Shown here in pieces: positions 1-15,195 of a stretch of DNA of 64,000 nucleotides. Both the position numbers and the translations under genes were made by a program. The DNA is from Alphaproteobacteria bacterium (GTDB lineage: Bacteria; Pseudomonadota; Alphaproteobacteria; UBA828), in contig CBDCRW010000006.1 of the NCBI GenBank assembly GCA_965221125.1, positions 512,001 through 576,000 on the forward strand. Reading direction: 5' to 3'. Every line of letters starts with the position of its first letter. Position 1 is the stretch's first letter. Below the pieces are notes generated by a model. That model was given only the letters and a program-made list of their open reading frames with translations. It was not told the origin of the DNA and ran no database searches.

Positions 1-675
1 GATCTCGTGGGGCGTGCCCACCTGCCGGATCTCGCCCGCCGACATCACGGCGATGCGGTCCGACATCGTCAGCGCCTCCTCCTGGTCGTGGGTGACGAAG
101 ACGAAGGTGATGCCGGTGTCCTTCTGGATCTGCTTGAGCTCGATGCGCATGGCCTGGCGGAGCTTGAGGTCGAGCGCCGACAGCGGCTCGTCGAGCAGGA
201 GCACCTTGGGCCGGGGCGCCATGGCGCGGGCGAGTGCCACGCGCTGCTGCTGGCCGCCGGAGAGCTGTGCCGGCCTGCGCGCGGCGAGGTCGCCGAGCTT
301 CACCAGGTCGAGGATGCGCACCGTCTGGTCCTCGATGTCCGCCTTGCTCCAGCCGAGGCGGCGCATGCCGAAGGCCACGTTCTCCGCCACCGTCATGTGC
401 GGGAAGAGCGCGTAGTGCTGGAAGACCGTGTTGATCGGGCGCCGGTTGGGGGGCAGGTCGCCGAGATCCTCGCCGTAGAGGAGGATCTCGCCTTCGGTGA
501 TGTCCTCGAAGCCCGCGATGAGGCGGAGCAGCGTGGTCTTGCCGCAGCCGGAGGGGCCAAGCAGCGTGAAGAACTCGTTGTCGCGGATGGTGAGCGATGC
601 GCCGGCGAGCGCGGTCACCGGGCCGAACCGCTTGACGGCGTTGCGCACGTCGATGGCGATTGTCTGCTCGGTCAA
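1..675 (-). CDS. PotA-like polyamine ABC transporter ATP-binding subunit (5' part; runs off the window start)
   Basis: Translated by hand from TTG at 675 with a GGGAGAG RBS upstream: [18 protein letters not shown]...GPSGCGKTT (Walker A), [63 protein letters not shown]. Absent from the ORF track because there is no stop codon in the window. Confidence 0.88.
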
Positions 676-712
676 GACGCCTCTCCCGGCCCGCGGCGGA
701 TCGTGAACCCGG

Positions 713-1657
713 CTACGCCTGGACGACCGGAATCTCGGGCCCGGTCAGGGTCCTGATCGCGTAGTCGGGCTCGTCGACCCGCGCGAACCCGACCCTCTCC
801 AGCCAGTCGTCCGTCGAAAGCGCGAGGATATCCGTATCCTCCGCGATGTTCCTGAACGCGCCGGTGGGCAGCGTCACGTAGGGCGCGCAGGCGAGCGCAC
901 AGCCCACGTGGTTCTTCGGGATGTGCGACGCCTTCCAGCCGATGTAGATCTTCCGGTAGCGCGCCCCCTGGTTCTCGCCGCAGAGGTAGGCCGCATAGGC
1001 GATCCTGTTGAGCCTCGCGTCGAGCCTGTCCCGCACGGCGTCCTCCTCGTCCGCCGCATGAGACATGATCCCTGTGTCTTCCATGAAGAGGCACGCGTGG
1101 TTGTCTCTGTCCTCGGCGATGGCGAAGCCGAGCGCGCACCAGATCCACATGTTGCCGTCGGAGACCGCGCTCGTGCGGTATTTTTCGGCGCAGACGACCA
1201 TCGCGCCCTCCTGCGGCGGGAAGTGCCGGCTGTCGGCCACGCCGAAGAGTTGCCGCGTCGCGTCCCGCAGGGGAATGAGGGAGTAGATCGGAATGTTCTC
1301 GATCCGCCCGACCGGATAAGTCTTGCCGATGCGGGAATCGATCGCGAGGTCGTAGCCCCAGATGGCGCCGTTGACGCCGCTGAAGGACGACGCCTGCAGC
1401 ATGTTGACCTGGCCGATGTATGAATCGTTACACTCGGCGCGGTCGTAGGACACGATCTCGGCCATGCCCTGGTCCAGGTCTTCCTCGAAGGGAAAGCCGG
1501 GGAACTGCTCCAGGTTCACGCTGCCCGTGGACAGCAGGACGGTCGAGACGTAGGCCCCCGGCTGCCCGGTCGCGGTGGGCTCCAGGTAGCCGCCGCAAGC
1601 GCTTTCCGTCGTGTTCCGGCAATTCCGAACGATCTCTGCCAGGCGTGCGTCAGTCAT
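713..1657 (-). CDS. hdcA: Pyruvoyl-dependent histidine decarboxylase proenzyme (HdcA-like)
   Basis: IVSYDRAE...[13 protein letters not shown] (Ser90-Ser91 self-cleavage site), RHFPP, VCAEK, FMEDTG and APYVTLP match the Lactobacillus HdcA motifs [36 protein letters not shown] and APYVSLP (recalled, not aligned by software). Confidence 0.85.
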
Positions 1658-1669
1658 CGCGTGCTCCCA

Positions 1670-2440
1670 TCAGCCCGTGAATCCGAGCCGCCTGCCGAGG
1701 TCGGCCGCCGCTGCCGACAGCTTCTCCCTGATCCGCGTGCGCGCCACGGGACGGAAGCGGTCGGCGAGGCCGGTGATGCCGACGGAATAGAGGACGTAGC
1801 CGCCGTTCACGCGGATCGGGTGGCCGTAGCTGAGCACGCCGGCGTCGAGCTCGTTGTCGCAGACCGCCATGCCGTCGGCGCGAATCTGACCGAGCTCGTC
1901 GCGGATCTCCGCGTCGTCCACTCTGGTCTTCTCGGTGTAGCGCTCGCGCGGGCGCGCGAGATAGCGGGCGACGAACTCCTCGTCCTGAAACGCGAGGATC
2001 GCCTTGCCCGAGGCGGCCGCGTGCAGCGGCAGCTGCCGGCCCGGCTGCACGAAGGCGCGATCGGAGCCCGAAGGCTGCTCCATCAGCACGGACTCGGCGA
2101 AGTCGCCGTTGAGCCGGGCCAGATGCGCGGTCTCGCCGAACGCCGCCACCAGCTCGTCGAGAACCGGCTTGGCGAGCCCCGCATAGCCCGCGCGGTCCAT
2201 GCTCGCATGCAGGAGGGACTGCAGCCGGGGCCCGGTCACGTAGCTCTTGGTCCCGGGCGCACTCCGCAGCAGGTCGAGGTCCACGAGGCCCCGGATCAGG
2301 CGATGCACCGTCCCCGGTTGCAGCGCCAGCTCCCGCGCGATGTCCGTGAGCGTGAGCCCGGTGCGCGCGGCGGCCACCGTCTCGAGCACGCGGACGTAGC
2401 GCCCGAGTGGCTTGTCGTTGCTATCGGTGCTATCGGCCAT
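1670..2440 (-). CDS. IclR family transcriptional regulator
   Basis: N-terminal HTH (LTLTDIARELALQPGTVHRLIRGL), FGETAHL, LPLHAAASGKAILA, ELDAGV effector domain. Confidence 0.92.
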   Translation of the reverse strand: MADSTDSNDKPLGRYVRVLETVAAARTGLTLTDIARELALQPGTVHRLIRGLVDLDLLRSAPGTKSYVTGPRLQSLLHASMDRAGYAGLAKPVLDELVAAFGETAHLARLNGDFAESVLMEQPSGSDRAFVQPGRQLPLHAAASGKAILAFQDEEFVARYLARPRERYTEKTRVDDAEIRDELGQIRADGMAVCDNELDAGVLSYGHPIRVNGGYVLYSVGITGLADRFRPVARTRIREKLSAAAADLGRRLGFTG

Positions 2441-2460
2441 CGTTCAGGGCGCTCCCGCCG

Positions 2461-4785
2461 TCATCGCGCGGCGGCGTGCTGCTGCAAGGCGCGGACCACG
2501 CGCTCCGGCGTGATCGGCATCTCGAAGACGCGCACGCCGATGGCGTCGGCGACGGCGTTGGCGATGGCGGGGGCCACGGCGGTCATGGCCGGCTCGCCGA
2601 TGCCCTTGGCGCCGAAGGGCCCGACCCCGCTGCGGGATTCGAGGACGATGCACTCGACGTTCGGCATGTCCATCGCCGTCGGCATCAGGTACTCGCTGAA
2701 CGACGGCGTGACCAGGCGGCCTTCCTCGTAGAGCATCTCCTCGCTGAGCGCGTAGCCTTGCCCGTTCTGCGCGCCGCCCTGGATCTGGCCTTCCACGGCG
2801 GACGGGTTGATGCACTGGCCGACGTCGTGGGCGGCGACGCTCTTCAGCACCTCGACCTCGCCGGTCTCCACGTCGACCGAGACCTCGACCGCGTGGGCGC
2901 CATAGGCGTAGTCGGGGTGGGCCTGGCCCTGGCCGGTCTCGGGATCCAGGAAGTCGCCGAAGGGCGCGCGGAAGATCGCGAGTTCCGAGCGGTGGATGCC
3001 CTCGGCCGCGCAGATGCGCACCAGATCGACCAGCGGCATGGTCTTCTCCGGCCGGTCGATGACGAAGACCTCGTTGAAGGCCATGTCGATCTCGTCCGGG
3101 GAGACGCCGAATTCCTGCGCCGCGCGTTCGGCGAGGCGGGCGCGAAGGCCCTCGGCCGCCTGCTTGGCGGCGTTGCCGGTCATGTAGAGCGCGCGCGTCG
3201 CCGTGGTGGTGCCGGCGAGCGGGGTGACGGCGGAATCGCTGTTGTAGGTGACCACGTTGTCGAGGGTGACGCCGAGCACCTCCACCGCGATCTGGCCCAG
3301 CGCCGAAATCTGGCCGGCGCCGATGTCAGTGACGCCGGAGCGCACCACGACGGTGCCGTCCATCTCGACGCCGACCCAGGCTTCCGAGGTGTCGTGCAGG
3401 AAGGTGAGGCGGCCGTAGCTCTGCTGATAGCAGGCGAGGCCGCGGCCGGTGCGGATCGGCCCCTCGGCTGGGGTGGGCGCGCCGAGGGCGGCCCAGGCCT
3501 GCTCCGCGCACTGCTCGGTCCAGATCGCGCTCGGCGGCACGAAGCCGGTGGACATGGGCTCGCCGGTCTTGAGGAAGTTGCGCCGGCGCACCTCCATCCG
3601 GTCGAGGCCGAGCGCGTTCGCGATCTCGTCCATCTGCTGCTCGTAGGCCGCGCAGGCCTGCAGCGCGCCGAAGCCGCGGAAGGCACTCGTGTACATGTTG
3701 TTGGTGGCGACGGCCTGGGCGAAGACGTTGAGGTTGTCGACACGGTAGGGGCCGGGGGCCGCGACCAGCGCGTAGAGGATGACGTAGGGGCTGAGGAAGA
3801 CGTAGGCGCCGGCGTCGGCGATCATCTTCACTTCGAGGGCTGTGATCTTGCCGTCCTTCGTGACGCCGGTGCGGTAGGTGAGGATGAACGGGTGGCGCTT
3901 GCCGTGGCCGACGAAGGAATCCTCGCGCGAGTATTCCAGCCGCACCGGCCGGCCGGTGTGCTTGGCCAGCAGCGCGAGGTAGACCTCGACGGTCAGGTCC
4001 TCCTTGCCGCCGAAGCCGCCGCCCACCAGCGCGCCCCGCACGCGGACCTTGTTGTGGGGCACGCCGATGGCGTCGGCGATGGGCCGAAAATGCTCGATCA
4101 CCTGGGTCGAGACGCGGATGTTCACCACGTCGTTCTCGTCCACCCAGGCGAGGCCCACCTCCGGCTCGAGGAAGGCGTGCTCCTGGAACGGGGTCTTGTA
4201 GGTGTGCTCGACGATCAGGTCGGCCACGCCGAAGCCGGCCTCGGCGTCGCCCTTCCTGATCCTGCGCTCGGCGACGATATTGTCCGAGCCGTAGACCAGA
4301 GGCGCGCCGGGCTTCAGCGCCTCCAGCGGGTCGTAGACGCCGGGGATCGGCTCCAGCTCGAACTCGATCAGCTCGGCCGCGTGGTCGGCGATGTCGCGGG
4401 TCTCGGCGGCGATCAGGGCCAGCGGCTCGCCGAAGTAGCGGACCCGGTCCTTCACCAGGATCGGCTGGTCGGTATCCAGCCTCTTGCGTCCGGTCTGGCC
4501 GGGGATGTCGGTGGCCGATGTGCGATCGGTGATGTCGGCGGCGGTCAGCACGCAGGCCACGCCCTTGAGCGCGCGCGCCCTGGAGACATCAAGGCGCACC
4601 AGACGGGCGCTCGCGATGTCGGCGCGGAGCACGCGCATGTGCAGCATGTTCGGCATCACGTAGTCGCCGGCATAGGGCGTGCGCCCCGTGACCTTGCCCG
4701 GCGCGTCGGTGCGGGTGAGCGGCTTGCCGATTTGCCGGTACTGGACGTTGGCCAGCGCGCCCGGATCGGTGTCGGTGTAGGTCAT
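2461..4785 (-). CDS. Xanthine dehydrogenase-family molybdopterin-binding large subunit
   Basis: Start moved to ATG 4785 (ATGA overlap with the upstream gene). Motifs KVTG..YAGD, QEHAFLEP, VGGGFGGK, SAFRGFG, AVEGQIQGG, GAKGIGEP. Confidence 0.92.
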   Translation of the reverse strand: MTYTDTDPGALANVQYRQIGKPLTRTDAPGKVTGRTPYAGDYVMPNMLHMRVLRADIASARLVRLDVSRARALKGVACVLTAADITDRTSATDIPGQTGRKRLDTDQPILVKDRVRYFGEPLALIAAETRDIADHAAELIEFELEPIPGVYDPLEALKPGAPLVYGSDNIVAERRIRKGDAEAGFGVADLIVEHTYKTPFQEHAFLEPEVGLAWVDENDVVNIRVSTQVIEHFRPIADAIGVPHNKVRVRGALVGGGFGGKEDLTVEVYLALLAKHTGRPVRLEYSREDSFVGHGKRHPFILTYRTGVTKDGKITALEVKMIADAGAYVFLSPYVILYALVAAPGPYRVDNLNVFAQAVATNNMYTSAFRGFGALQACAAYEQQMDEIANALGLDRMEVRRRNFLKTGEPMSTGFVPPSAIWTEQCAEQAWAALGAPTPAEGPIRTGRGLACYQQSYGRLTFLHDTSEAWVGVEMDGTVVVRSGVTDIGAGQISALGQIAVEVLGVTLDNVVTYNSDSAVTPLAGTTTATRALYMTGNAAKQAAEGLRARLAERAAQEFGVSPDEIDMAFNEVFVIDRPEKTMPLVDLVRICAAEGIHRSELAIFRAPFGDFLDPETGQGQAHPDYAYGAHAVEVSVDVETGEVEVLKSVAAHDVGQCINPSAVEGQIQGGAQNGQGYALSEEMLYEEGRLVTPSFSEYLMPTAMDMPNVECIVLESRSGVGPFGAKGIGEPAMTAVAPAIANAVADAIGVRVFEMPITPERVVRALQQHAAAR

Positions 4786-5270
4786 GGTGCGCCTCCTCCG
4801 GCGCGCATGTCGCCGGCGGCGTCGGCGATTGCCTCGAAGATCTTGGTGTAGCCGGTGCAGCGGCAGAGATTGCCGCTCAGCCCCAAGCGAATGTCGTCCT
4901 CGCTTGGCTGCGGATGCTCGTCGATGATCGCCTTGGCCGCGATGATGATGCCGGGAATGCAGTAGCCGCACTGCGCGGCGCCGCCGTCGGCAAACGCTTT
5001 CTGCAGGGGATGCGGCGAATCCAGGTCGCCGAGGCCGGAGACGGTGGTGACCTCCTTGCCCGCCGCCATCCAGGCAAGGGTCAGGCAGCTGTCCACGGCC
5101 ATGCCGTCCAGCAGCACGGCGCAGGCGCCGCAGTCGCCCTTCTCGCAGCCGCACTTCACCTCCATGTGGCCGAGCTGGCGCAGCGCCTCCAGCAGCGTGC
5201 GGTGGGCGGGGAAGCGGCCTTCCTCCTCGCGGCCGTTGATGCGGAGCGTGATGGTTCTCGTCTCAGGCAT
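4782..5270 (-). CDS. Molybdoenzyme 2x[2Fe-2S] small subunit (CoxS/XdhC type)
   Basis: KCGCEKGDCGACAV..DSC, QCGYCIPG and GNLCRCTGY. ATG 5270 follows a GGAG RBS; GTG 5279 is an alternative start. Confidence 0.93.
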   Translation of the reverse strand: MPETRTITLRINGREEEGRFPAHRTLLEALRQLGHMEVKCGCEKGDCGACAVLLDGMAVDSCLTLAWMAAGKEVTTVSGLGDLDSPHPLQKAFADGGAAQCGYCIPGIIIAAKAIIDEHPQPSEDDIRLGLSGNLCRCTGYTKIFEAIADAAGDMRAGGGAP

Positions 5271-6150
5271 GGGCGTCACTCCCTCGGGCCAGGCGGTTCC
5301 ACGCTTGCGTGACCAGGCGCCGGGTCAGGGCTTCCACCGTGTGGCGGCGGTAGCCGGCGGAGGCGCGGATGTCGTCGATGGGGCTGCATGTCTCCGCCGC
5401 CGCCGCCGCCGCCTCGTCGATGAGCGCGGGCGTGAGCGTCCGGCCCTCCAGCATCGCTTCCGCCTCCTTCACGCGGCGGACGTAGGGCGCGACGGAGGCA
5501 AGCGCGATCCGCGCCCTGGTGCAGGTGCCGTCCGCCACCGAGAGCGCCACCGCCACGCCGGTGACGGTGATCGCGTCGCCCTTGCGGCGCGCGAGCTTGT
5601 AGAAGGTGTCGGTGGAGTTCTCCGGCTGCTGCGGCCATGAGATGCGGGTGATCAGCTCGTCCGGCCGGCGCGCGTCCTCCTTGTAGCCGAGGTAGTAGTC
5701 GTCGAGCGCCAGCGTGCGCGTGCCGGACGCGCTGGCCAGCTCCAGCTCGGCGTCGAGCACGAGCAGCGGCGGCACGAGGTCGGCCGCCGGCGAGCCGCTG
5801 GCGATGTTGCCGGCGACCGTGCCCGTATTGCGCACCATCAGGCCGCCGAAGAGGCGCGCGGCGTCGATCAGCGACGGCGCCTCGCGCGCGATCTCGGGCG
5901 AGCGCAGCAGGTCGCTCACCGTGGTGCGGCTGCCGATGGCGATGCGCTCAGGACCGAAGGCCATGCCGAGCAGCGCGTCGACCTCGCCGAGGCCCACCAT
6001 CCGGTCGGGCCGCTCGCGCTTCGCGCGGATGTCGACGATGAGGTTCGTGCCGCCCGCGATGGGGAGCACGGTCTCGCCGGCCCCGTTCGCGAGCGCCGCC
6101 AGGGCGCCATCCAGGTCCGTCGGGATATCCAGTTCGAAGGGCGCGTACAT
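5263..6150 (-). CDS. Molybdoenzyme FAD-binding medium subunit (CoxM/XdhB type)
   Basis: AGGTNL, VRNTGTVAGNI, SPAADL, PIDDIRASAGYRR. No Cys-rich [4Fe-4S] insert. Confidence 0.92.
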   Translation of the reverse strand: MYAPFELDIPTDLDGALAALANGAGETVLPIAGGTNLIVDIRAKRERPDRMVGLGEVDALLGMAFGPERIAIGSRTTVSDLLRSPEIAREAPSLIDAARLFGGLMVRNTGTVAGNIASGSPAADLVPPLLVLDAELELASASGTRTLALDDYYLGYKEDARRPDELITRISWPQQPENSTDTFYKLARRKGDAITVTGVAVALSVADGTCTRARIALASVAPYVRRVKEAEAMLEGRTLTPALIDEAAAAAAETCSPIDDIRASAGYRRHTVEALTRRLVTQAWNRLARGSDAHA

Positions 6151-6178
6151 ATCGCGATGTCTCCCGTCTCTGCCCGCG

Positions 6179-6961
6179 CTACACGTCCCAGCCGCCGTCG
6201 ACGGTGATGGCCTGGCCGGTGATCTGGCGGCTCTCCTCGCTCGCCATGAACAGCACGGCGTCGGCCACGTCCTGGCAGGTGGTGACGCGCTTCAAGCACA
6301 TCTCCTGAACGTACTCGTCGTACACCTCGTCGATGGTCCAGCCGCGCACGCGGGCCTTCTCCTCGCAGAGCTTCTGCATGCGGGGCGTCTCGACGATGCC
6401 GGGGCAGACCGCGTTGACGTTGACGTTGTACTTGCCGACCTCGAGCGCCACCGTGCGCGTGATCCCGCGCACCGCCCACTTGGACGCGCTGTAGGCGGTG
6501 CGCATGGCGTAGCCGCGCAGGCCCGACGTGCCGCCGATGTTGACGATCTTGCCGCTCCGCTGCGCGATCATGGTCGGCACCACGTACTTGATGGGCAGGA
6601 AGGTGCCGATCTCGTTGTTTCGGATGACGTAGTCGAAGTCGGCCACGTCGATGTCCTGCACAGGCGTCTCGATGGGGCCGGTGACGCCCGCGATGTTGAC
6701 CAGGATGTCGATGCGCCCGTCGAAGACCGCGCGCGCCTGCTCGACCATCGCCTTGACCTGCCCATCGTCGGTGACGTCGCAGCCCACGACATGGGCCGCC
6801 CGCCCCAGCGCACGCACGTCCGCCGCGACCGGGGCGAGCGCGTCCGTATCCCGCGCGGTCAGCACGACGTCCGCGCCCTCGCGCGCGAGCGTGGTCGTGA
6901 TCGCCGCGCCCATGCCCTTCGCCGCGCCGGTGACGATCGCCTTCTTGCCATCCACTCTCAC
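6179..6961 (-). CDS. Short-chain dehydrogenase/reductase (SDR)
   Basis: GTG start overlapping the upstream stop; TGAAKGMG, NIAG, YSASK, VNAVCPG, ITVDGG. The 973-aa ORF in the track is over-extended at its 5' end. Confidence 0.92.
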   Translation of the reverse strand: MRVDGKKAIVTGAAKGMGAAITTTLAREGADVVLTARDTDALAPVAADVRALGRAAHVVGCDVTDDGQVKAMVEQARAVFDGRIDILVNIAGVTGPIETPVQDIDVADFDYVIRNNEIGTFLPIKYVVPTMIAQRSGKIVNIGGTSGLRGYAMRTAYSASKWAVRGITRTVALEVGKYNVNVNAVCPGIVETPRMQKLCEEKARVRGWTIDEVYDEYVQEMCLKRVTTCQDVADAVLFMASEESRQITGQAITVDGGWDV

Positions 6962-8574
6962 TGCATCGTTCCCTTGCTTGTTTGGCTCGTTGTCGCGGGC
7001 TCTCCGTAGCCGCCGCCGCCGCAGCTCTCGACGATCACCACGTCGTCCCTGCCGAGCCGCAGGTTGGCCTTGCCCGGCATGTCCTCGCGGCGGCCGTCGG
7101 CATGCGCGACGGTGACCCGGAAGGGCGCGCCGTCCTCGCCGCCCTGCAGGCCGTAGGGCGGCACCACGCGGCGCTCGAACATCGAGGTGACCGACATCTC
7201 GTCGGCGAGCACGCGGTATTCGCGGTGCAGGCCCTCGCCGCCCCGCCGGCGGCCGGCGCCGCCGGAGTCCGCGCGCAGGCGCTGGCACTCGATGCGGATG
7301 GGGAACTCGGCCTCCACCACCTCGGCCGGCGTGTTCATCACGTTGGACATGTGAACGCGCACCACCGGCGCGCCGTCGCGGTCGTGGCGTGCACCTTCGC
7401 CGCCGCCGTGGACCTCGTAGAGCGTGGTCCAGGCGCCGTCCGCGCGCCTTCCGCCGAAGAGCACGAGGCCGGACGTGGTCGGCCCGCCGGCGGAAATGCG
7501 CTCCGGCCCCACGGCCTCGAAGGCGCGGAACACGGCGTCGGCAATCCGCTGCGAGGTCTCGTGGTTGCCGCCCACCACGGGGCTTTCTGCAGACGGATCG
7601 AGCAGGGAGCCGGGGCGCGTCACGATCTCCAGCGGGCGGTAGCAGCCGCCGCTCGGCTGGATGTCGGGCCCGAACAGGGTCTTGACCACGTAGAAGACCG
7701 AGGCCGCGGCGATGAAGGGGGTGGTGTTCACGGGGCCCCGCGCGGCGTCCTCGGTCGCGGAGAAGTCGAAGCGCGCGCCGTCGCCGGCGATGGTGACGCG
7801 CACGCGCACGGCGACCGGCCCGCCGCCGCCGGCATCGTCGTCGAGCCAGTCCTCGCCCTCGTAGGTGCCGTCCGGAACGGCGGCGAGCGCCGCCCGCATT
7901 TGCGCCTCGGCCCGGTCGTGGATCGCGGCGACGGCGGCCAGCACCGTTTCCCGCCCGTGCTCGGCGCAGATGTGGTGGATGCGCTCCTCGGCGGCGCGGC
8001 TGGCCGCGACCTGCGCCAGGATGTCGCCCTCGCGCTCGTCCGCGCCCCGCACGTTGGCGCAGACCATGTCCAGCTTCTCGCGGTCGGGGCCGGAGGCGGT
8101 GAAGAGGCGGAAGGGCGGGATGCGCAGGCCCTCCTGCCAGGCGTCGGTGGCGCCGGCCACATAGCTGCCGGGCACCGCGCCGCCGATATCCGCCCAGTGG
8201 GCGAGGCTCGCGGCGAAGGCCACGATCCGGTCGTCCACGAAGATCGGGCGGATCGCTTTCACGTCCGGCAGGTGGTTGCCGCCCACCTCCGGCAGGTTCA
8301 GGAACCAGACGTCGCCGGGCTCCAGGCGGTCCCTGGGCACGCGCTTCAGGAACTCGCGGACGGTGAAGCTCATGACCCCCATGTGCATGGGGATGTCGCG
8401 GCCCTGGGCGATGAGGTGGCCGTCGGCATCGGTGAGCGCCGAGGAAAGATCGCCGGCCTCGCGCAGGAGCGGCGAGCGGGCCGAGCGCATGACCACGAGC
8501 GACATTTCCTCCGCCGTCGCCGTCAGCGCGTGGCGGATGACCTCCAGGGTGATCGGGTCGACGGTGCGGCTCAT
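6958..8574 (-). CDS. Hydantoinase B / 5-oxoprolinase family subunit
   Basis: DPITLEVI, RSARSPLLRE..DLS, GGNHLPD, AHWADIGG, NTPAEVVE, DSGGAG, CGGGGYG. ATG 8574 overlaps the upstream stop. Confidence 0.92.
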   Translation of the reverse strand: MSRTVDPITLEVIRHALTATAEEMSLVVMRSARSPLLREAGDLSSALTDADGHLIAQGRDIPMHMGVMSFTVREFLKRVPRDRLEPGDVWFLNLPEVGGNHLPDVKAIRPIFVDDRIVAFAASLAHWADIGGAVPGSYVAGATDAWQEGLRIPPFRLFTASGPDREKLDMVCANVRGADEREGDILAQVAASRAAEERIHHICAEHGRETVLAAVAAIHDRAEAQMRAALAAVPDGTYEGEDWLDDDAGGGGPVAVRVRVTIAGDGARFDFSATEDAARGPVNTTPFIAAASVFYVVKTLFGPDIQPSGGCYRPLEIVTRPGSLLDPSAESPVVGGNHETSQRIADAVFRAFEAVGPERISAGGPTTSGLVLFGGRRADGAWTTLYEVHGGGEGARHDRDGAPVVRVHMSNVMNTPAEVVEAEFPIRIECQRLRADSGGAGRRRGGEGLHREYRVLADEMSVTSMFERRVVPPYGLQGGEDGAPFRVTVAHADGRREDMPGKANLRLGRDDVVIVESCGGGGYGEPATTSQTSKGTMQ

Positions 8575-10586
8575 GGCGCGGCCCCGGTGGCGATGTGGAG
8601 GTGGCCGGCGTCGTCGGCCGTGAGCGTGGCACCCGGCGGCACGACCACGGTCGACCATTCATCGTCGACGATGACCGGCCCTTCCAGCGGCCAGTCGGCG
8701 CCCAGGGCGGCGCGGTCGTAGCGCGGCGTCGGCAGCGGCGCGCCGGTATCGAACGTGGCCGGCAGCGTGCGCGCAGGCGACGGCGGCTCGTTGGCCTTGG
8801 GCGCCGGAGCACGTGCCTCGCCGTTGCGGGGCGCGGAGACGCGCACGCGGATCGAGACCAGCTCCCACGGCTCCTCCGTGGCGAAGCCGTAGAGAGTCCG
8901 GTGGCGCTCCATGAAATCCCGGCCGAGCCGCGCGGGATCGTCGAAGGCGGGGGTCGCGATCTCGATGGCGTAGCTCTGGCCCCGGTAGCGGATCGAGGCG
9001 ACCTCCTCGACCGCCAGATTGCCGTTGCCGTGACCGGCCGCCCTGAGCGGCGCGGCGAGGGTCGCATGCAGCGCCCGCCGTGCCTGGTCCACGCGCGCAC
9101 CGTCCCACGCGTCCGACGCCACGCGGAGCGTGCGCTGCTGCGCGTAGCTCATCTCCGCGCCGACGCAACCCAGAGCCGAGAACATGCTGGAATGGGCGGG
9201 CACGACCACGTGCGCGATGGAGAAGGCGCGGGCCAGCGCCACCGCGTGCATGGGGCCGGCGCCGCCGAAGGCGAGCAGGGTGCACGCCCGCCCGTCGACG
9301 CCGCGCTCCACGGTGACGCGCCGCAGCGCGCGCAGCATGGCCGCGTTCGCCACCCTGACGACGCCCAAAGCCGCAGCCTCCGGCGTCATGTCCATGGCTG
9401 TGGCGAGCGGCGCGATCGCGTCACGGGCCGCGCCGGTATCGAGGTGCACGTTGCCGCCGAGGACGCGCCCCGCCTCCATGTAGCCCAGCACCAGGTTGGC
9501 GTCGGTCACGGTCGGCCGCGCGCCGCCCTTGCCGTAGCAGGCGGGGCCCGGCACCGCGCCGGCGCTCTCCGGCCCCACCGCAAGCGAGCCGTGATCGAGC
9601 CGGGCGATGGAGCCGCCGCCGGCGCCGATGGATTCCACCGCGACCATGGGCTGGCGTAGCGGCCGGCCGCCCAAGGAGCGGTCGGCGGAAATCTGCGCCT
9701 CGCCGTCCGCGATCAGGCAGACATCGGTGGTGGTGCCGCCCATGTCGAAGCTGATGGCGCGCTCGAGCCTAAGCGCGCGGGCCATGCTGCCAGCGGCGGC
9801 GACGCCGGCGGCAGGACCGGAGGCGGCGAGGCCCAAGGGAAGGTCGCGCAAGGCCTCGGGCGAAGCCATGCCGCCGGCGGAATGGAAGAGGTGCAGGCGG
9901 GAGTCTTCGGGCTTCGCGCTCTCCAGGTCGTCCATGTACGCGGCCGCGAGCGGCATGACGCCTGCGCTCAGCGCCGTGGTTGCCGTCCGCTCGTACTCGC
10001 GGGCCTCGGGATTGACCCGGTGCGAGAGGGCGACGAAGGGGAAGCGCTCGCCGAGCCGGGCGCCCAGCGCCTCCTCGTGCGCGGGATTGGCGTAGGAATG
10101 GAGCAGCGAGACGGCCACCGCCTCCGCGCCGCTCGCCTCGATGCGGGCGATGGCGTCCTCCACCGAGGCCGGGTCCAGCGCGGCCATGACCCTGCCGTCG
10201 TGGTCGAGCCGCTCGCTCACCTCGAAGCGGCGCTCGGGCGGCACCTGGGGTGCCAGCTTGGGCGCGAGATCGAGCCGGTAGAGGTGGCGGCGGTTCTGGC
10301 GCCCGATGGCGAGCGTGTCTGCGAAGCCGCGCGTCGCGATCAGGGCGACCTTCGCGTGGTCGTCCTGGACGATGGCATTGGTGACGATGGTGGTGCCGTG
10401 GATCAGGTCGTCCACGTCGGCCCACGCGAGATCCACCGCGCCGAGCGCAGACAGCAGGCCGGTGATGCGGTCGTCGGTGCGGGAGGGAACCTTCGCGGCC
10501 CGCACCTCGCCGCGCGCCCGGTGCACGGCGATCACGTCGGTGAACGTGCCACCCACATCGATACCGACTTGCCATCCATGCGGCAT
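8571..10586 (-). CDS. Hydantoinase A / 5-oxoprolinase family ATP-binding subunit
   Basis: GIDVGGTFTD, HGTT, SGPAAG, DMGGTTTD, IGAGGGS, GPESAGAVPGPACY, AFGGAGPMHA. Confidence 0.93.
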   Translation of the reverse strand: MPHGWQVGIDVGGTFTDVIAVHRARGEVRAAKVPSRTDDRITGLLSALGAVDLAWADVDDLIHGTTIVTNAIVQDDHAKVALIATRGFADTLAIGRQNRRHLYRLDLAPKLAPQVPPERRFEVSERLDHDGRVMAALDPASVEDAIARIEASGAEAVAVSLLHSYANPAHEEALGARLGERFPFVALSHRVNPEAREYERTATTALSAGVMPLAAAYMDDLESAKPEDSRLHLFHSAGGMASPEALRDLPLGLAASGPAAGVAAAGSMARALRLERAISFDMGGTTTDVCLIADGEAQISADRSLGGRPLRQPMVAVESIGAGGGSIARLDHGSLAVGPESAGAVPGPACYGKGGARPTVTDANLVLGYMEAGRVLGGNVHLDTGAARDAIAPLATAMDMTPEAAALGVVRVANAAMLRALRRVTVERGVDGRACTLLAFGGAGPMHAVALARAFSIAHVVVPAHSSMFSALGCVGAEMSYAQQRTLRVASDAWDGARVDQARRALHATLAAPLRAAGHGNGNLAVEEVASIRYRGQSYAIEIATPAFDDPARLGRDFMERHRTLYGFATEEPWELVSIRVRVSAPRNGEARAPAPKANEPPSPARTLPATFDTGAPLPTPRYDRAALGADWPLEGPVIVDDEWSTVVVPPGATLTADDAGHLHIATGAAP

Positions 10587-10605
10587 GGCACGGCCTCAAT
10601 TCTCG

Positions 10606-10637
10606 GTTATCGAAAATAGTTTCGATAACTCGATAAC
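10606..10637. promoter_or_regulatory. Candidate operator: perfect inverted repeat GTTATCGAAA-N4-TTTCGATAAC followed by an extra TCGATAAC
   Basis: AT-rich 10-bp-arm palindrome 20 bp upstream of the hydantoinase A start, in the divergent promoter region. Confidence 0.65.
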
Positions 10638-10810
10638 GATGCGCCCGCGCGGCGGCGCCTGTCAACATTAAATCGGGCTGTTCCTGGCGGATCGAACGCT
10701 TGGGTGCGACACAGGCCGTGACCCTGGTGAGAATTGCGGGCTGACGACGGCAAAAATACACTGTGCGGCGGCGGTCGCGCGTCAGGCGGCCGGCTCCCGC
10801 ATGGCGAGGG

Positions 10811-11833
10811 ATGGGGATGACCTGGCTCGACGACAGCGCGTGGCGCTACTTCTGGCACCCGGTCTGCACGCTCGTGGAACTCGACGCGGCCGCCGCCGAG
10901 AGCCGGCCGCTCGCGGTCACGCTGCTCGGCGAGCCGCTCGCCGTCGCCCGGATCGCCGGCACCGTCGCCGCCTTCCCGGACCGCTGCATCCATCGCTCGA
11001 CCCGTCTCACGGTGGGCTGCGTGGAGACGGGCGGGCTGCGCTGCGCCTACCACGGCTGGCTCTACGATGCGGACGGCGCGTGCGTCGAAATCCCCGCCAT
11101 GCCGGACTTCACGATCCCGCCGAGCTTCCGGCTGCGCAGGATCGAGGCGGAGATGGCCTACGACCTCGTCTGGCTGCGCCTCGAGGCGGGCGCCGGGACG
11201 CGCATTCCCGGATGCCCGGCCTGGAGCGACGACGCCTTCCGCTGCGTCCAGGGCGAGCCCTACATCTGGCCGACATCGGCCGGGCGCCGGCTGGAGAATT
11301 TCGTCGACCTCGCGCACTTCCCGTTTGTCCACGACGGCTCGCTCGGCGACCGCCGGCACGCGACCGTGCCGATCGCGGACGTCGCCCGCGTCGGCGGCGA
11401 GCTGCGCTTCCGCTTCGAGCCGGAGCCGGACATGGCGCTGCCCGACGTCGCCCTGATGGCGCCGACGGACTACCGCCTCTGGATGCCGTTCACGGTCAAC
11501 CTGGAATTCGCCTTCGCGGACGGCGAGCGCGGCCAGCTCTGGATGGCGGCGTCGCCGGTCGAGTCCGGGACCTGCCGCAGCTTCTGGTTCACGAGCCGCA
11601 CCGCCGACAGGGACGGCGACGACCGCCCGCACCTCGATTTCCAGGATCTCGTGCTGGGCGAGGACCTCCCGGTGATCGAGGCGCAGGAGCCGCCGGAGAT
11701 TCCGGGTCCGGGCGGCGAGAAGTCCGTGCCGACCGACGCGGTCTCGCTGGCCTATCGCCGCTGGCTGCGCGAGCTCTCCGCCGCCGCCGGGAAGGGGGCT
11801 GCGGCGGTGGCACGGAGTCTGTCCTCCGAATAG
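10811..11833 (+). CDS. Rieske non-heme iron oxygenase alpha subunit (VanA/demethylase-like)
   Basis: Rieske motif DRCIHR...CAYHGW and mononuclear Fe motif ENFVDLAHFPFVH; C-terminal EDLPVIEAQ. Start is ATG 10811 or 10817. Confidence 0.9.
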   Translation: MGMTWLDDSAWRYFWHPVCTLVELDAAAAESRPLAVTLLGEPLAVARIAGTVAAFPDRCIHRSTRLTVGCVETGGLRCAYHGWLYDADGACVEIPAMPDFTIPPSFRLRRIEAEMAYDLVWLRLEAGAGTRIPGCPAWSDDAFRCVQGEPYIWPTSAGRRLENFVDLAHFPFVHDGSLGDRRHATVPIADVARVGGELRFRFEPEPDMALPDVALMAPTDYRLWMPFTVNLEFAFADGERGQLWMAASPVESGTCRSFWFTSRTADRDGDDRPHLDFQDLVLGEDLPVIEAQEPPEIPGPGGEKSVPTDAVSLAYRRWLRELSAAAGKGAAAVARSLSSE

Positions 11834-11897
11834 CGGCCTCGGGAGCGACTTTTTCTTATCCCTCAATCGGCGGGCGCTCGCTCCGCTCGCTTGCCTA

Positions 11898-11946
11898 CGC
11901 GCCTTCGGCGCGCGGCGCGGTCGCGCCGTCCGGGCCTGCGGCCCGG
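11898..11946. repeat. Cluster of three abutting GC hairpins (REP-like)
   Basis: CGCGCC-TTC-GGCGCG, CGGCGCG-GT-CGCGCCG, CCGGGCC-TGC-GGCCCGG. Confidence 0.5.
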
Positions 11947-12200
11947 GCGAAACCGGGCGGCTCTTCATGTCACGCCCGCGAGCTTTCAGGCGCGGGCGAC
12001 GCACCATGGTGCGGTGGAAGGCGGGGGCGGAGCGGGGCAGTCTCGGTGGATGCGGTGTGTGGACCATGAGCTCGGCGACGTGCGAAGACGCCGTCAGCGC
12101 GGCCTGTCGGCGCATGAAAGCGCGGGATGCGGAGGACGAATCAGGCCGGCGGGACCCTCGGCGCGAGGGGGACGCGCGGCCGGGTGGCGGCCCTGGACGG

Positions 12201-12376: not shown

Positions 12377-13096
12377 TCACGGCAGCCGGTCGTCCTGCGA
12401 TTCCGCCGCCCTGTTCGTGCGCTCCAGGTGCTTGAGCGCCTCGCGCCGGCTGAGCGCGGAGAGCCCGGCGTGGCGTCGGACGAACGCCGTCACCCACTCC
12501 GGGTCGGTCTTGGAATACTCGCGGAGCGCCCAGCCGATGCCCTTGCGCAGGAAGAATTCCGGCTCGCCGATGGAGGGGCGGATTACATCGGCCAGAAGCT
12601 CGGTGTCCGTCGCCTCCCTGGCCCGGAGCTGGGCGAGGATCGCGGTCCGCCGCTTCCAGATGTCGCCGTCATGCGCCCAGTCGCGCAACACCGCCTTCAT
12701 CGGGCGTGGATGGGCGGCGAGCATGGCGCCGACGCCGCGCCCGGCAATCGCGTCCACGTAGTCCCACCAGGCGCCGGTCACCACCAGCTCCTCGACCAGC
12801 GGAAGCCTCGCGGGCTCGAGCCAGCGCGCGTAAGCGCCGAAGAGCAGAAGCTCGACCGCCGCGTAGCGTTCCTCCCGGTGGGCGGCGTTGCGCCAGAGGT
12901 CGAGAATTGCCGCCTCCCAGGTACCGGCGTCCGGCAGCGGGTGCGCCCTGAACACGGAACCCGCGATGCGCCGGCACTGCGGCACGCCCACGCCGAAGAA
13001 GGGTATGGCGGACTTCATGTACGCCTGCTGCTGCGGCGCCCTGGCCGGATCGGCGGCCTTGCGCAGGGCGGCTATGACGGCCCCTCGAACGGTCAT
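12377..13096 (-). CDS. DNA alkylation repair protein (AlkD-like HEAT-repeat glycosylase family)
   Basis: AYMKSAIPFFGV, REERY, WWDYVD, WKRRTAI, EFFLRKGIGWALREYSK, LSRREALKHL. Confidence 0.88.
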   Translation of the reverse strand: MTVRGAVIAALRKAADPARAPQQQAYMKSAIPFFGVGVPQCRRIAGSVFRAHPLPDAGTWEAAILDLWRNAAHREERYAAVELLLFGAYARWLEPARLPLVEELVVTGAWWDYVDAIAGRGVGAMLAAHPRPMKAVLRDWAHDGDIWKRRTAILAQLRAREATDTELLADVIRPSIGEPEFFLRKGIGWALREYSKTDPEWVTAFVRRHAGLSALSRREALKHLERTNRAAESQDDRLP

Positions 13097-13269
13097 CGCA
13101 AATCCTGGCCGACCCGGCGACGGCGGGCAACCCGAGCCGGCGGCAGCGCGCAACGTTGCCTGGGCGGGCGAGGCGCACTAGCGTCTGCGCGCCGACCCGG
13201 GCTCGTGGGCGAATGCGGCTTCGGGCGTCGGCGCGAGCGAATCGAGGGAAAGAGGACGGAGCGAGGTCA

Positions 13270-14277: not shown

Positions 14278-15195
14278 CTAAGTCTCCGCTTGCGCCGCCG
14301 GCTGGCGGCGGGCCGCGTGGATCAGGAGCGCAACGCCCGCCAGCATCAGCACGGCGGCGGCCCAGACGTAGGCGCTGTGGCGCTCGCTGAAGAAGAGGAT
14401 GCCCCAGCCGAGGCCCGCCACGACGACGACGTAGTTGAACTGCGAGAAGAACACCGGGCCGGCCGCGCGCACGATGATCAGGAACGTGATGTACATGGTG
14501 ATGGTGACGCCGGCGGCGCCGAGGATCGCGAGGTCGGCGACGGTGTCCGGCCCCGGCACCACGTAGGTCTCGCCCAGCCCGAGCATCACCGGGGCCAGCA
14601 TGATGGCCGCTGCCGTCACGATGCCGCTCGCAAACGTCAGCACCGGCGTTTCCGGCGGGTCGATCAGGGCGGCGAGGTTGTTGGTGAGCGCAAAGCAGGC
14701 CGGTGCAAGCAGGGCGAGCAGGAACCAGCCCACCATGCCGGGCTCCGGCAGGGAGAACGTGGGGATCGTCATCAGCAGGATGCCGCCCACCCCGCACAGC
14801 ACGCCGATCAGGCTGAGCGCGCGTATCCGCTCCAGCCGGAGCGTGAGCGCGATCAGGTAGGTGATCGGGGGCGACAGGATCACCACCATGGAGAGGATGC
14901 CGGTCGGCAGCTTCGGCGCGAGCCAGGTCATGAGCGCGACAGGTGCTGCGATGCCAAACAGCCCGATCACGAAATAGGCCGTGAGGTGCCGGGCTTCCAG
15001 CCGCGGGAGCGCGCGCCGCCAGGCTGCGAGGATCAGCAGCAGGACCGCGGCGCCGAGGGTCTGCCAGAAGGTGAAGGCGAGCGGCGGCGTTCCGGCCTCC
15101 ACCGCGATCTTGTTCATGGTGAAGATGAGCGGATAGACCGCCCCGATCGTGAACAGCAGGAAGATCGGGAGGGAAAGCGGCCCGCGGCGCCCCAT
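14278..15195 (-). CDS. DMT/EamA family transporter
   Basis: About ten hydrophobic segments with two-fold repeat; LRLER and GWGILFFSER motifs. Confidence 0.88.
   Translation of the reverse strand: MGRRGPLSLPIFLLFTIGAVYPLIFTMNKIAVEAGTPPLAFTFWQTLGAAVLLLILAAWRRALPRLEARHLTAYFVIGLFGIAAPVALMTWLAPKLPTGILSMVVILSPPITYLIALTLRLERIRALSLIGVLCGVGGILLMTIPTFSLPEPGMVGWFLLALLAPACFALTNNLAALIDPPETPVLTFASGIVTAAAIMLAPVMLGLGETYVVPGPDTVADLAILGAAGVTITMYITFLIIVRAAGPVFFSQFNYVVVVAGLGWGILFFSERHSAYVWAAAVLMLAGVALLIHAARRQPAAQAET

Follow-up and report, generated by a model that had tools for sequence, protein, structure and literature searches.

How might a bacterium break down histidine and histamine outside the Hut pathway? 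The question is raised by a 64,000-nucleotide stretch of DNA (hereafter the window) from an alphaproteobacterium of the lineage UBA828 (assembly GCA_965221125.1, contig CBDCRW010000006.1, positions 512,001 to 576,000). At its left end a gene for a pyruvoyl-type histidine decarboxylase (HDC) is packed together with genes for a HyuAB hydantoinase/lactamase, a short-chain dehydrogenase/reductase (SDR), a three-subunit molybdenum (Mo) hydroxylase (CoxMSL), an IclR-family regulator and a Pot-type ABC transporter, and, beyond the left edge, with a gene for a putative histamine dehydrogenase (HADH). In our judgement there is an even chance that this candidate operon serves to take up and degrade histamine, as well as histidine via histamine, through Mo hydroxylation and HyuAB opening of the ring. 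Its parts are of unequal strength. The HDC, Pot and HADH genes very probably handle histidine and histamine. The complete Hut-free histidine route, in which HDC and HADH would be followed by Mo hydroxylation to a cyclic ureide, ATP-driven opening by HyuAB and the release of aspartate-family products, is a tentative proposal, which we hold to be possible and incline somewhat to doubt.

A 13-gene candidate operon

In the present study, the starts, stops and junctions of the window genes were verified by script. Nine genes, namely hyuA, hyuB, SDR, coxM, coxS, coxL, iclR, hdc and potA, all lie on the minus strand, and their junctions match exactly those given by the first-pass annotation of this DNA: in operon order, overlaps of 4 and 4 nt, a gap of 28 nt, overlaps of 8 and 4 nt, and gaps of 20, 12 and 37 nt. 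The ABC operon, which that annotation had expected to run on past the left edge, indeed does so. In the adjoining locus L001 (G000:C6:494001-513000, where G000 is the genome of the window and the window itself is G000:C6:512001-576000), which covers 18 kb to the left, we found the rest of potA, potB, potC, a PotD-like gene and a gene of the trimethylamine dehydrogenase (TMADH) family. The run comprises 13 co-oriented genes and is bounded, left of the window, by a convergent carboxyltransferase gene; judged by packing and orientation, the nine window genes make up most of a 13-gene candidate operon. The families named earlier for ten genes (these nine and a divergent Rieske oxygenase gene) are all borne out by Pfam matches above the gathering score. 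All ten stay below the curated NCBIfam equivalog cut-offs: family membership is certain, the identity of each enzyme is not.

A putative histamine dehydrogenase and histidine decarboxylase

The best support for histamine comes from a gene outside the window. The last gene of the operon is, by its predicted protein, a close orthologue of two solved histamine dehydrogenases, and a preference for histamine is predicted: it scores 888.1 bits against 3K30 and 877.1 bits against 6DE6, end to end, and 542.5 bits against TMADH, with a further 701.6 bits against 6L6J, a structure of unnamed function. Its residues C37, Q67, E81 and D361 stand at the Nocardioides simplex positions Cys35, Gln65, Glu79 and Asp358, and the Fe-S motif CxxCxxC is present as CIGCNIC. 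We take the cysteine to be the one that carries 6-S-cysteinyl-FMN, and Gln65, Glu79 and Asp358 to be the residues that replace the aromatic bowl of TMADH. Among the 13 tblastn rows with at least 73% identity, 12 have this C-Q-E-D set, including every scorable HADH copy linked to the hyuAB-SDR-coxMSL(+IclR) genes (hereafter the module).

The HDC protein matches the Pfam family HDC (PF02329) with 157.3 bits over residues 17-292, against a cut-off of 25, and scores 154.9 bits on TIGR00541, below the equivalog cut-off of 346.65. Since it forms a distant branch and stays under that cut-off, we infer its histidine specificity rather than assign it. When 20 homologues (36-65% identity) are aligned, S90, S91, F92, Y71, D72, E75, K159 and E193 are invariant in all 20, and HMMER places them on Ser81, Ser82, Phe83, Tyr62, Asp63, Glu66, Lys155 and Glu197 of the Lactobacillus 30a enzyme. 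The segment A-S90-S91-F92 falls where the beta chain of 1HQ6 ends and its alpha chain begins, which predicts self-cleavage at Ser90/Ser91, and the YDRAE, CAxK and F-x-EDxG motifs of the Lactobacillus 30a chains are kept as well. In the same HMMER alignment there is identity at all seven residues that we take to make up the pocket and catalytic site of that enzyme (Ile59, Tyr62, Asp63, Glu66, Lys155, Phe195 and Glu197, with Asp63 presumably binding the imidazole). The protein thus represents a distant branch whose HDC active site is intact, and histidine is its most likely substrate. Of the histamine theme put forward earlier, the part that concerns HDC gains from these conserved residues, and the theme as a whole from the HADH scores; what it implied about the substrates of the Mo enzyme, the SDR and HyuAB stays putative.

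With regard to transport, the partial PotA protein reaches 334.6 bits on the PotA model, and the binding protein and the PotB-like and PotC-like permeases score 216, 239 and 222 bits to PotD, PotB and PotC. A PotABCD-like system points to an amine, and the import of (methyl)histidine, which had been suggested, gives way to the import of an amine, probably histamine.

Conservation within the genus

Close HDC homologues (83-96% identity) occur in nine loci of uncultured Alphaproteobacteria/Rhodospirillales, and the order from hyuA to hdc is conserved in all seven of those that reach far enough upstream. One further locus, L007, is a 3-kb piece with iclR, hdc and potA, and in L009 hdc has moved behind the HADH gene, yet lies inside the cluster. 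Among 21 genomes of the genus, HDC is found in 16 and the CoxL orthologue in 17; all 16 HDC genomes are among those 17, and HDC occurs in none of the four genomes without CoxL, these genomes being kin, so that the counts are not independent. The HADH-like gene is present at 73% identity or more in 18 of the 21, and directly follows the binding-protein gene in three of the seven close loci reaching that far.

One genome of the genus (G002) holds two copies of the cluster, at C7:10605-14665 and C2:167150-171230, with HDC at 96% and 87% and CoxL at 96% and 94% identity; one in-frame TGA interrupts the 96% CoxL copy. In relatives, the 3' end of the operon has been reshaped by mobile elements: at L165 18574-21959, IS1595- and IS91-type transposases and an integrase stand at the expected position of HADH, and at L182 18143-20617 the HADH gene is split by a 487-amino-acid open reading frame (ORF) on the opposite strand.

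A widespread module and its partners

Beyond the genus the catabolic core has a wider life of its own. CoxL orthologues at 64-96% identity were collected from 78 loci of Alpha-, Beta- and Gammaproteobacteria and a few others, and by tblastn they are accompanied by CoxM in 74, CoxS in 74, SDR in 57, HyuA in 52, HyuB in 52 and IclR in 48. The SDR gene stays beside hyuB in 57 of the 78, and HyuA, HyuB and SDR occur together, at the identity thresholds used, in 50. These counts suggest that hyuAB-SDR-coxMSL(+IclR) is an older, widespread module of many Proteobacteria. Its matches are numerous (2298 database proteins at E <= 1e-200 to CoxL); no cultured organism was seen among the best 120 of the CoxL protein matches, and the plasmid collection contained no orthologue, the best match being 37%.

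Which enzymes feed this module? In the 50 full-module loci we counted an aminotransferase in 15, an aldehyde dehydrogenase (ALDH) in 17, HADH in 7 and HDC in 8, where the 45% identity threshold misses betaproteobacterial aminotransferases that Pfam detects. Aminotransferase and HADH are both present in L182 alone. The widespread layout, composed from the Pfam annotation of L161, L196, L193 and L203 with no single locus showing every element, runs from a divergent iclR gene to a class-III aminotransferase, hyuA, hyuB, SDR, ALDH, coxM, coxS and coxL, often followed by a LivK-type ABC system. Albidovulum, Rhodobacter, Rhodoplanes and Xanthobacteraceae loci (L198, L203, L210, L201 and L207) represent the aminotransferase type. 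On this evidence the module is usually linked with an enzyme that makes an aldehyde from a primary amine, and in the clade of the window that enzyme is predicted to be histamine dehydrogenase.

In a FastTree phylogeny of 72 CoxL sequences, the HADH-linked clusters all fall in one clade of 18 rows with support 100. It contains the genus of the window, the gammaproteobacterial loci L167, L180 and L181 with HADH, the Rhodobacterales locus L182, in which the aminotransferase is still present, and the gammaproteobacterial loci L176-L179 and L206, in which HADH was not found within 10 kb. Such a single origin of the HADH link fits, as far as the tree goes, the replacement of one enzyme by another for the same step.

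Seen from the other side, 77 HADH-centred loci form a heterogeneous set. HyuAB-like and CoxLMS-like neighbours at 29-39% identity in L090, L091, L114, L137 and L138 were set aside as other paralogues, standing beside proline, purine and other genes, and no support was drawn from them. In L138 (7940-16582; L148 has the same layout), a PotABCD-like transporter is followed by four tandem TMADH/HADH-family paralogues and convergent CoxLMS-like genes.

Family placement of HyuAB, SDR and the Mo enzyme

HyuA matches Hydantoinase_A with 267.7 and Hydant_A_N with 175.1 bits in Pfam; on NCBIfam it reaches 432.7 bits on the caprolactamase alpha model (cut-off 1000) and 197.5 and 157.9 bits on acetophenone carboxylase subunits. 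HyuB matches Hydantoinase_B with 599.5 bits and its caprolactamase model with 268.7 bits, again against a cut-off of 1000. Thus both subunit families are present, adjacent and of hydrolase-type length, and the pair lies outside the caprolactamase equivalogs. Among Protein Data Bank (PDB) entries, HyuB scores 225.5 bits against the Pseudomonas jessenii 'Hydantoinase' 6YRA_B and 223.8 against the N-methylhydantoinase 7HK5, compared with 111.4 for acetophenone carboxylase and 55.9 for acetone carboxylase. Because about 225 bits to lactamase and hydantoinase stand against 111 and 56 to the carboxylases, a ring-opening amidohydrolase is likelier than a carboxylase, and the alternative of a ketone carboxylase was set aside. 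At least eight further HyuA/HyuB-like genes, at 32-39% identity to the operon pair, are scattered over contigs C2-C7 of the same genome, with at least three adjacent A/B pairs (e.g., C3:122920-126572, C5:615745-619377 and C6:758378-762007).

The SDR matches adh_short_C2 with 196.8 bits, its nearest NCBIfam model being 3-hydroxybutyrate dehydrogenase (219.3 bits, cut-off 258) and its PDB match 6ZZQ (161.7 bits). The Mo enzyme has an FAD subunit, a subunit with two [2Fe-2S] clusters and a Mo-pterin subunit, with all six domains of the xanthine dehydrogenase (XDH) family. The best NCBIfam matches of CoxL are pucD with 528.4 bits (cut-off 783.65), 4-hydroxybenzoyl-CoA reductase with 502.4 (994.55), PaoC with 297.4 (1180) and carbon monoxide (CO) dehydrogenase with 234.2 (991.15); among PDB entries, which range from 283 to 354 bits, the alpha subunit of 4-hydroxybenzoyl-CoA reductase comes first (354.3 bits), followed by nicotinate dehydrogenase and aldehyde oxidoreductases. 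CoxL falls outside the xanthine dehydrogenase, CO dehydrogenase, 4-hydroxybenzoyl-CoA reductase and aldehyde oxidoreductase equivalogs, and with scores short of these cut-offs a role of CoxLMS as xanthine or CO dehydrogenase was set aside.

A proposed pathway and its rivals

We propose that the pyruvoyl enzyme would decarboxylate L-histidine to histamine, that the PotABCD-like transporter would bring in the amine, probably histamine, from outside, and that HADH would oxidise histamine to imidazole-4-acetaldehyde and ammonia; the sequences support these three steps well. The later ones are more conjectural. Either the Mo enzyme or an aldehyde dehydrogenase encoded elsewhere may convert the aldehyde to imidazole-4-acetate, after which the Mo enzyme may hydroxylate the imidazole ring next to a nitrogen to give a cyclic ureide or lactam of the 2-oxo-imidazole or hydantoin type. 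The SDR could adjust the oxidation state of an intermediate, HyuAB could open the ring with ATP to yield an aspartate-family product such as N-carbamoyl-aspartate, and IclR could control the operon. In evolutionary terms, most carriers would feed the module through a class-III aminotransferase and an ALDH, HADH would have taken over the amine-to-aldehyde step in one clade, and HDC would have been added in one genus.

Several observations weigh against this histamine-to-ring-opening proposal. All steps after HADH, their chemical order included, are conjectural, and the substrates of CoxL, SDR and HyuAB are putative. No aldehyde dehydrogenase was found in the operon, and an orthologue of the module's ALDH is missing from the genome (best match 38% identity). 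HDC is joined to the module in one genus only: among 71 more distant HDC loci (35-45% identity, several of them short), collected with the alignment query, homologues of hyuA, hyuB and coxL/M/S were found in none, so that the recurrence of HdcA homologues beside hyuAB and coxMSL, as envisaged in the first-pass annotation, breaks down outside that genus. As many as 14 of the 50 full-module loci have neither a feeder enzyme nor a matching transporter within 10 kb, and all module carriers found are metagenome-assembled genomes. HADH is not adjacent to the binding-protein gene in four of the seven close loci reaching past that gene, L165 being one of the four, and the one scored unlinked HADH copy at 73% identity (L090) has a glutamate at the Gln65 position. 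Furthermore, since the HADH-linked clusters form a single 18-row clade, the link would have arisen once, spread across classes by transfer and later been rearranged.

That single origin also speaks for a reading that we consider unlikely, in which two unrelated units share one operon: HDC, PotABCD and HADH would end at imidazole acetaldehyde or acetate, or scavenge nitrogen, and the module would degrade another N-heterocycle or lactam, e.g., a hydantoin-, pyrimidine- or creatinine-derived compound. Of the 50 full-module loci, 38 indeed have neither HADH nor HDC, and the other 12 hold HADH and/or HDC. Conversely, HADH and PotA-like genes exist without the module (PotA-like genes in 40 of the 77 HADH-centred loci, the module's own orthologues in one), and the other HyuAB genes of the genome, at least eight in number, imply that such enzymes serve many substrates. 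Against two independent units stand the tight packing, with overlaps and gaps of at most 37 nt and one IclR gene in mid-operon, and the persistence of the link through rearrangement (L009/L164, L167, L180, L181, L182). In addition, within the genus HDC is never seen without the module, and the widespread form too has an amine-to-aldehyde enzyme and ALDH, the same logic as with HADH.

The transporter and the widespread form of the module bear on another reading, breakdown of a polyamine or diamine via a lactam, which we regard as distinctly improbable. Here the decarboxylase would make a diamine, PotABCD would import polyamines, and the TMADH-family enzyme would give an amino-aldehyde, which would close to a cyclic imine; from this imine the Mo enzyme would make a lactam, and HyuAB would open the lactam to an omega-amino acid, with omega-transaminase and ALDH finishing the route in the widespread form. 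Besides the PotD/B/C-likeness of the transporter, its PotD-like protein retains 10 of the 13 residues that we take to contact spermidine in Escherichia coli PotD (T35F, S83G and D168S are changed), and a polyamine is therefore a possible ligand, a further point against histamine; these residues do not appear to separate histamine from polyamines. The curated models nearest to HyuAB are the caprolactamase subunits. The nearest matches of the module aminotransferase are broad omega-transaminases, among them PDB 6G4B, which we take to be a caprolactam-pathway enzyme, and the module ALDH scores near betaine- and aminobutyraldehyde dehydrogenase models. Given these two likenesses, the order lactam, amino acid, semialdehyde, acid is possible, and it too tells against our proposal. 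Solved histamine dehydrogenases, moreover, accept agmatine and putrescine weakly. The polyamine reading runs up against the HDC, in which the residues matching Asp63 and the other parts of the Lactobacillus pocket are conserved, and against the dehydrogenase, which keeps the C-Q-E-D set of both solved histamine dehydrogenases; it would also spend ATP where a plain aldehyde dehydrogenase would suffice, and leave the SDR without a role. On balance, breakdown of histamine is the reading that we prefer.

Side observations on distant HDC loci

In the Roseobacter/Roseibium-type loci L017, L019, L023 and L052 (about 8400-10900), the HDC homologue (40-45% identity) always follows a TGL-like gene (PF20085; protein-glutamine gamma-glutamyltransferase), with a divergent regulator with BTAD and AAA_16 domains upstream, and the TGL-HDC pairing is conserved. 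This context differs from that of the window.

Possible histidine use without Hut

The first-pass annotation saw no Hut pathway here, and this holds at genome scale: urocanase (hutU) was not found by PF01175 or TIGR01228 in the genome of the window (92% complete, 5.8% contamination), an absence that is not proven at this completeness. The sole HAL-family gene scores 80 and 63 bits, far short of the 539 required for hutH; it is a HAL/PAL-family gene of 506 amino acids at G000:C4:437362-438666 (L237, L238). Across the genus, hutU is present in three of the 21 genomes, and 14 of the 16 HDC genomes are without it. One genome, G003, has the module, HADH and hutU, and no HDC. The Hut-less pattern of the HDC genomes is suggestive only; the addition of HDC would give these mostly Hut-less genomes a histidine route.

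Features of the window and its flanks

The features are collected in Table 1.

Table 1. Genes of the candidate operon, in operon order, with the intergenic region and the divergent gene; positions are those of the window unless preceded by L001
Feature	Position	Strand	Remarks
hyuA, hydantoinase/lactamase A subunit, 671 aa	8571..10586	-	first operon gene; ATG start, TGA stop
hyuB, hydantoinase/lactamase B subunit, 538 aa	6958..8574	-	ATG at 8574; ATGA overlap with hyuA stop
SDR, 260 aa	6179..6961	-	GTG start, 4-nt overlap with hyuB stop
coxM/xdhB-like FAD-binding subunit, 295 aa	5263..6150	-	FAD_binding_5 133.6 bits, CO_deh_flav_C 92.6 bits
coxS/xdhC-like [2Fe-2S] subunit, 162 aa	4782..5270	-	Fer2_2 99.4 bits, Fer2 37.8 bits
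coxL/xdhA-like molybdopterin subunit, 774 aa	2461..4785	-	MoCoBD_1 260.2, MoCoBD_2 237.9, Ald_Xan_dh_C 78 bits
IclR-family regulator, 256 aa, within operon	1670..2440	-	IclR_C 101.5 bits, HTH_IclR 41.8 bits
hdc, pyruvoyl-type HDC-family proenzyme, 314 aa (P0001)	713..1657	-	Pfam HDC, score in text
potA-like ABC ATPase, N-terminal 225 aa in window	1..675	-	TTG start at 675; runs off left edge; ABC_tran 124.9 bits
whole potA	L001 17587-18675	-	crosses left window edge
potB-like permease	L001 16661-17587	-	left of window
potC-like permease	L001 15838-16659	-	left of window
PotD-like binding protein	L001 14761-15798	-	left of window
TMADH-family flavoprotein, 697 aa, predicted HADH orthologue	L001 12569-14662	-	last operon gene
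intergenic region 5' of hyuA	10587..10762	.	presumed promoter/operator, by position only
VanA-type Rieske oxygenase	10763..11833	+	Rieske 63.4, VanA_C 68.7 bits

Because the G+C content is about 69% across the window, six-frame ORF lists are noisy, yet the nine minus-strand genes are clearly distinct in them. Consensus scans for promoters and terminators gave nothing above chance: no minus-strand terminator-like site was found in window positions 1-12000, where the only such site lies on the plus strand at 1164-1179 (chance expectation 3.0, so below chance), and the sigma-70 scan of the intergenic region returned no site. Matches with small shares (0.08 and 0.05) came from the RNA libraries of two metatranscriptomes, one of a sponge and one of a coral. 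Their contigs, at 88% likeness, are short pieces of relatives, one of which (X2 8312-8698) spans the hyuA/hyuB junction; they show neither a single transcript, nor RNA rather than DNA, nor habitat.

The Rieske gene starts 176 nt from the start of hyuA, or 224 nt if its first ATG is used. Its divergent position so close upstream had led to the fullest earlier version of the pathway, in which the Rieske enzyme demethylates an imported methylated histidine or histamine before decarboxylation, ring oxidation and opening. That version now seems to us highly improbable: a Rieske homologue was found neither upstream of hyuA in the eight close loci nor at the cluster in the 78 CoxL loci, the adjacent genes include no reductase partner, and the upstream neighbours differ among close relatives, in which a methyltransferase or Zn-ADH gene takes its place. 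The gene lacks linkage throughout these loci and is not part of the conserved system, and the demethylation step loses its support with it. Farther out lie an AlkD-type DNA alkylation repair gene (12377-13153, minus strand) and an EamA-family transporter gene (14278-15195, minus strand). Since the stretch from EamA to hyuA differs between the window and the 96%-identical relative L163, this flank is variable.

Meaning and comparison with known systems

As far as we know, bacteria have only two established ways of breaking down the imidazole ring, namely the Hut pathway and, for imidazole acetate, a route by flavin monooxygenase. If our proposal is true, it would add a third imidazole-ring route, assign a role to a conserved module of six genes that occurs in dozens of species-level genomes, and reveal a widespread pathway for histamine or imidazole acetate in soil, wastewater and marine Proteobacteria. 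It would explain how histidine could be used in genomes without urocanase and, for the first time, place the Gram-negative branch of pyruvoyl HDC-family proteins in a physiological context. It would also amount to a histamine sink in animal-associated and environmental communities, a host-active amine being removed in sponge- and coral-associated bacteria. If one of the rival readings holds, the locus is an ordinary mosaic of catabolic genes. The ring-opening chemistry is, in our opinion, an attractive and testable hypothesis for this widespread uncharacterised module.

In the literature searched, which included few subscription journals, we found among the papers listed none that joins HADH or imidazole acetate with a hydantoinase or Mo hydroxylase, and none that describes HADH in such an operon context; a paper on sponge neurotransmitters concerns HDC of the pyridoxal phosphate type, and an RB-TnSeq preprint, a paper on sRNAs of R. 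pomeroyi and a 1995 paper on histamine contained nothing that bears on the subject. The histamine dehydrogenases of N. simplex (3K30) and Rhizobium sp. 4-9 (6DE6) match the predicted enzyme end to end and share its flavin-link cysteine, Fe-S motif and Q/E/D residues, whereas the gene described here ends a 13-gene operon with HDC, a Pot importer and the Mo-hydroxylase/HyuAB module. HdcA of Lactobacillus 30a (1PYA, 1HQ6, 1IBV) shares the Pfam family, the Ser-Ser site and the aligned Tyr62, Asp63, Glu66, Lys155, Phe195 and Glu197; it differs in being distant (83.5 bits to the alpha chain) and in context, which appears catabolic here, with a putative histamine-consuming enzyme. Lactobacillus HDC pairs with a histidine/histamine antiporter in acid resistance, and that pairing is not the context here.

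In the Hin histamine pathway of Pseudomonas putida U, an aminotransferase and an aldehyde dehydrogenase are reportedly followed by a flavin monooxygenase and a hydrolase at the ring step. The widespread form of our module, with its class-III aminotransferase and ALDH, would follow the same steps from amine to aldehyde to acid; it differs at the ring step, where a three-subunit Mo enzyme, SDR and ATP-dependent HyuAB stand, and in the clade of the window a dehydrogenase replaces the aminotransferase. The caprolactam pathway of P. jessenii (CapAB, omega-aminotransferase, ALDH) offers the nearest HyuA/HyuB models and the same class of aminotransferase. The scores of 433 and 269 bits lie far from the cut-offs of 1000, and a Mo enzyme, SDR, HDC and amine dehydrogenase do not figure in that pathway in the accessible portions of its literature.

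For the ring itself, anaerobic indoleacetate breakdown may be set beside the operon. In the Aromatoleum/Azoarcus pathway an XDH-family Mo enzyme is said to make the lactam. The HyuA/HyuB-type hydrolase IaaCE of this pathway is predicted to be a 2-oxoindoleacetyl-CoA gamma-lactamase (PMC8453981 and PMC5214803, citing Ebenau-Jehle et al. 2012). In both cases the N-ring of a heteroaromatic acetic acid would become a lactam, which a HyuA/HyuB-type enzyme would then open. The ring is indole there and imidazole here, and the CoA thioesters and mutase of that pathway are unmatched, the operon having no CoA ligase or mutase. The earlier idea of Mo hydroxylation followed by ATP-driven ring opening hence finds a precedent, and its imidazole-type substrates stay putative. 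For the proposed ring chemistry, the indoleacetate pathway is the closest precedent.

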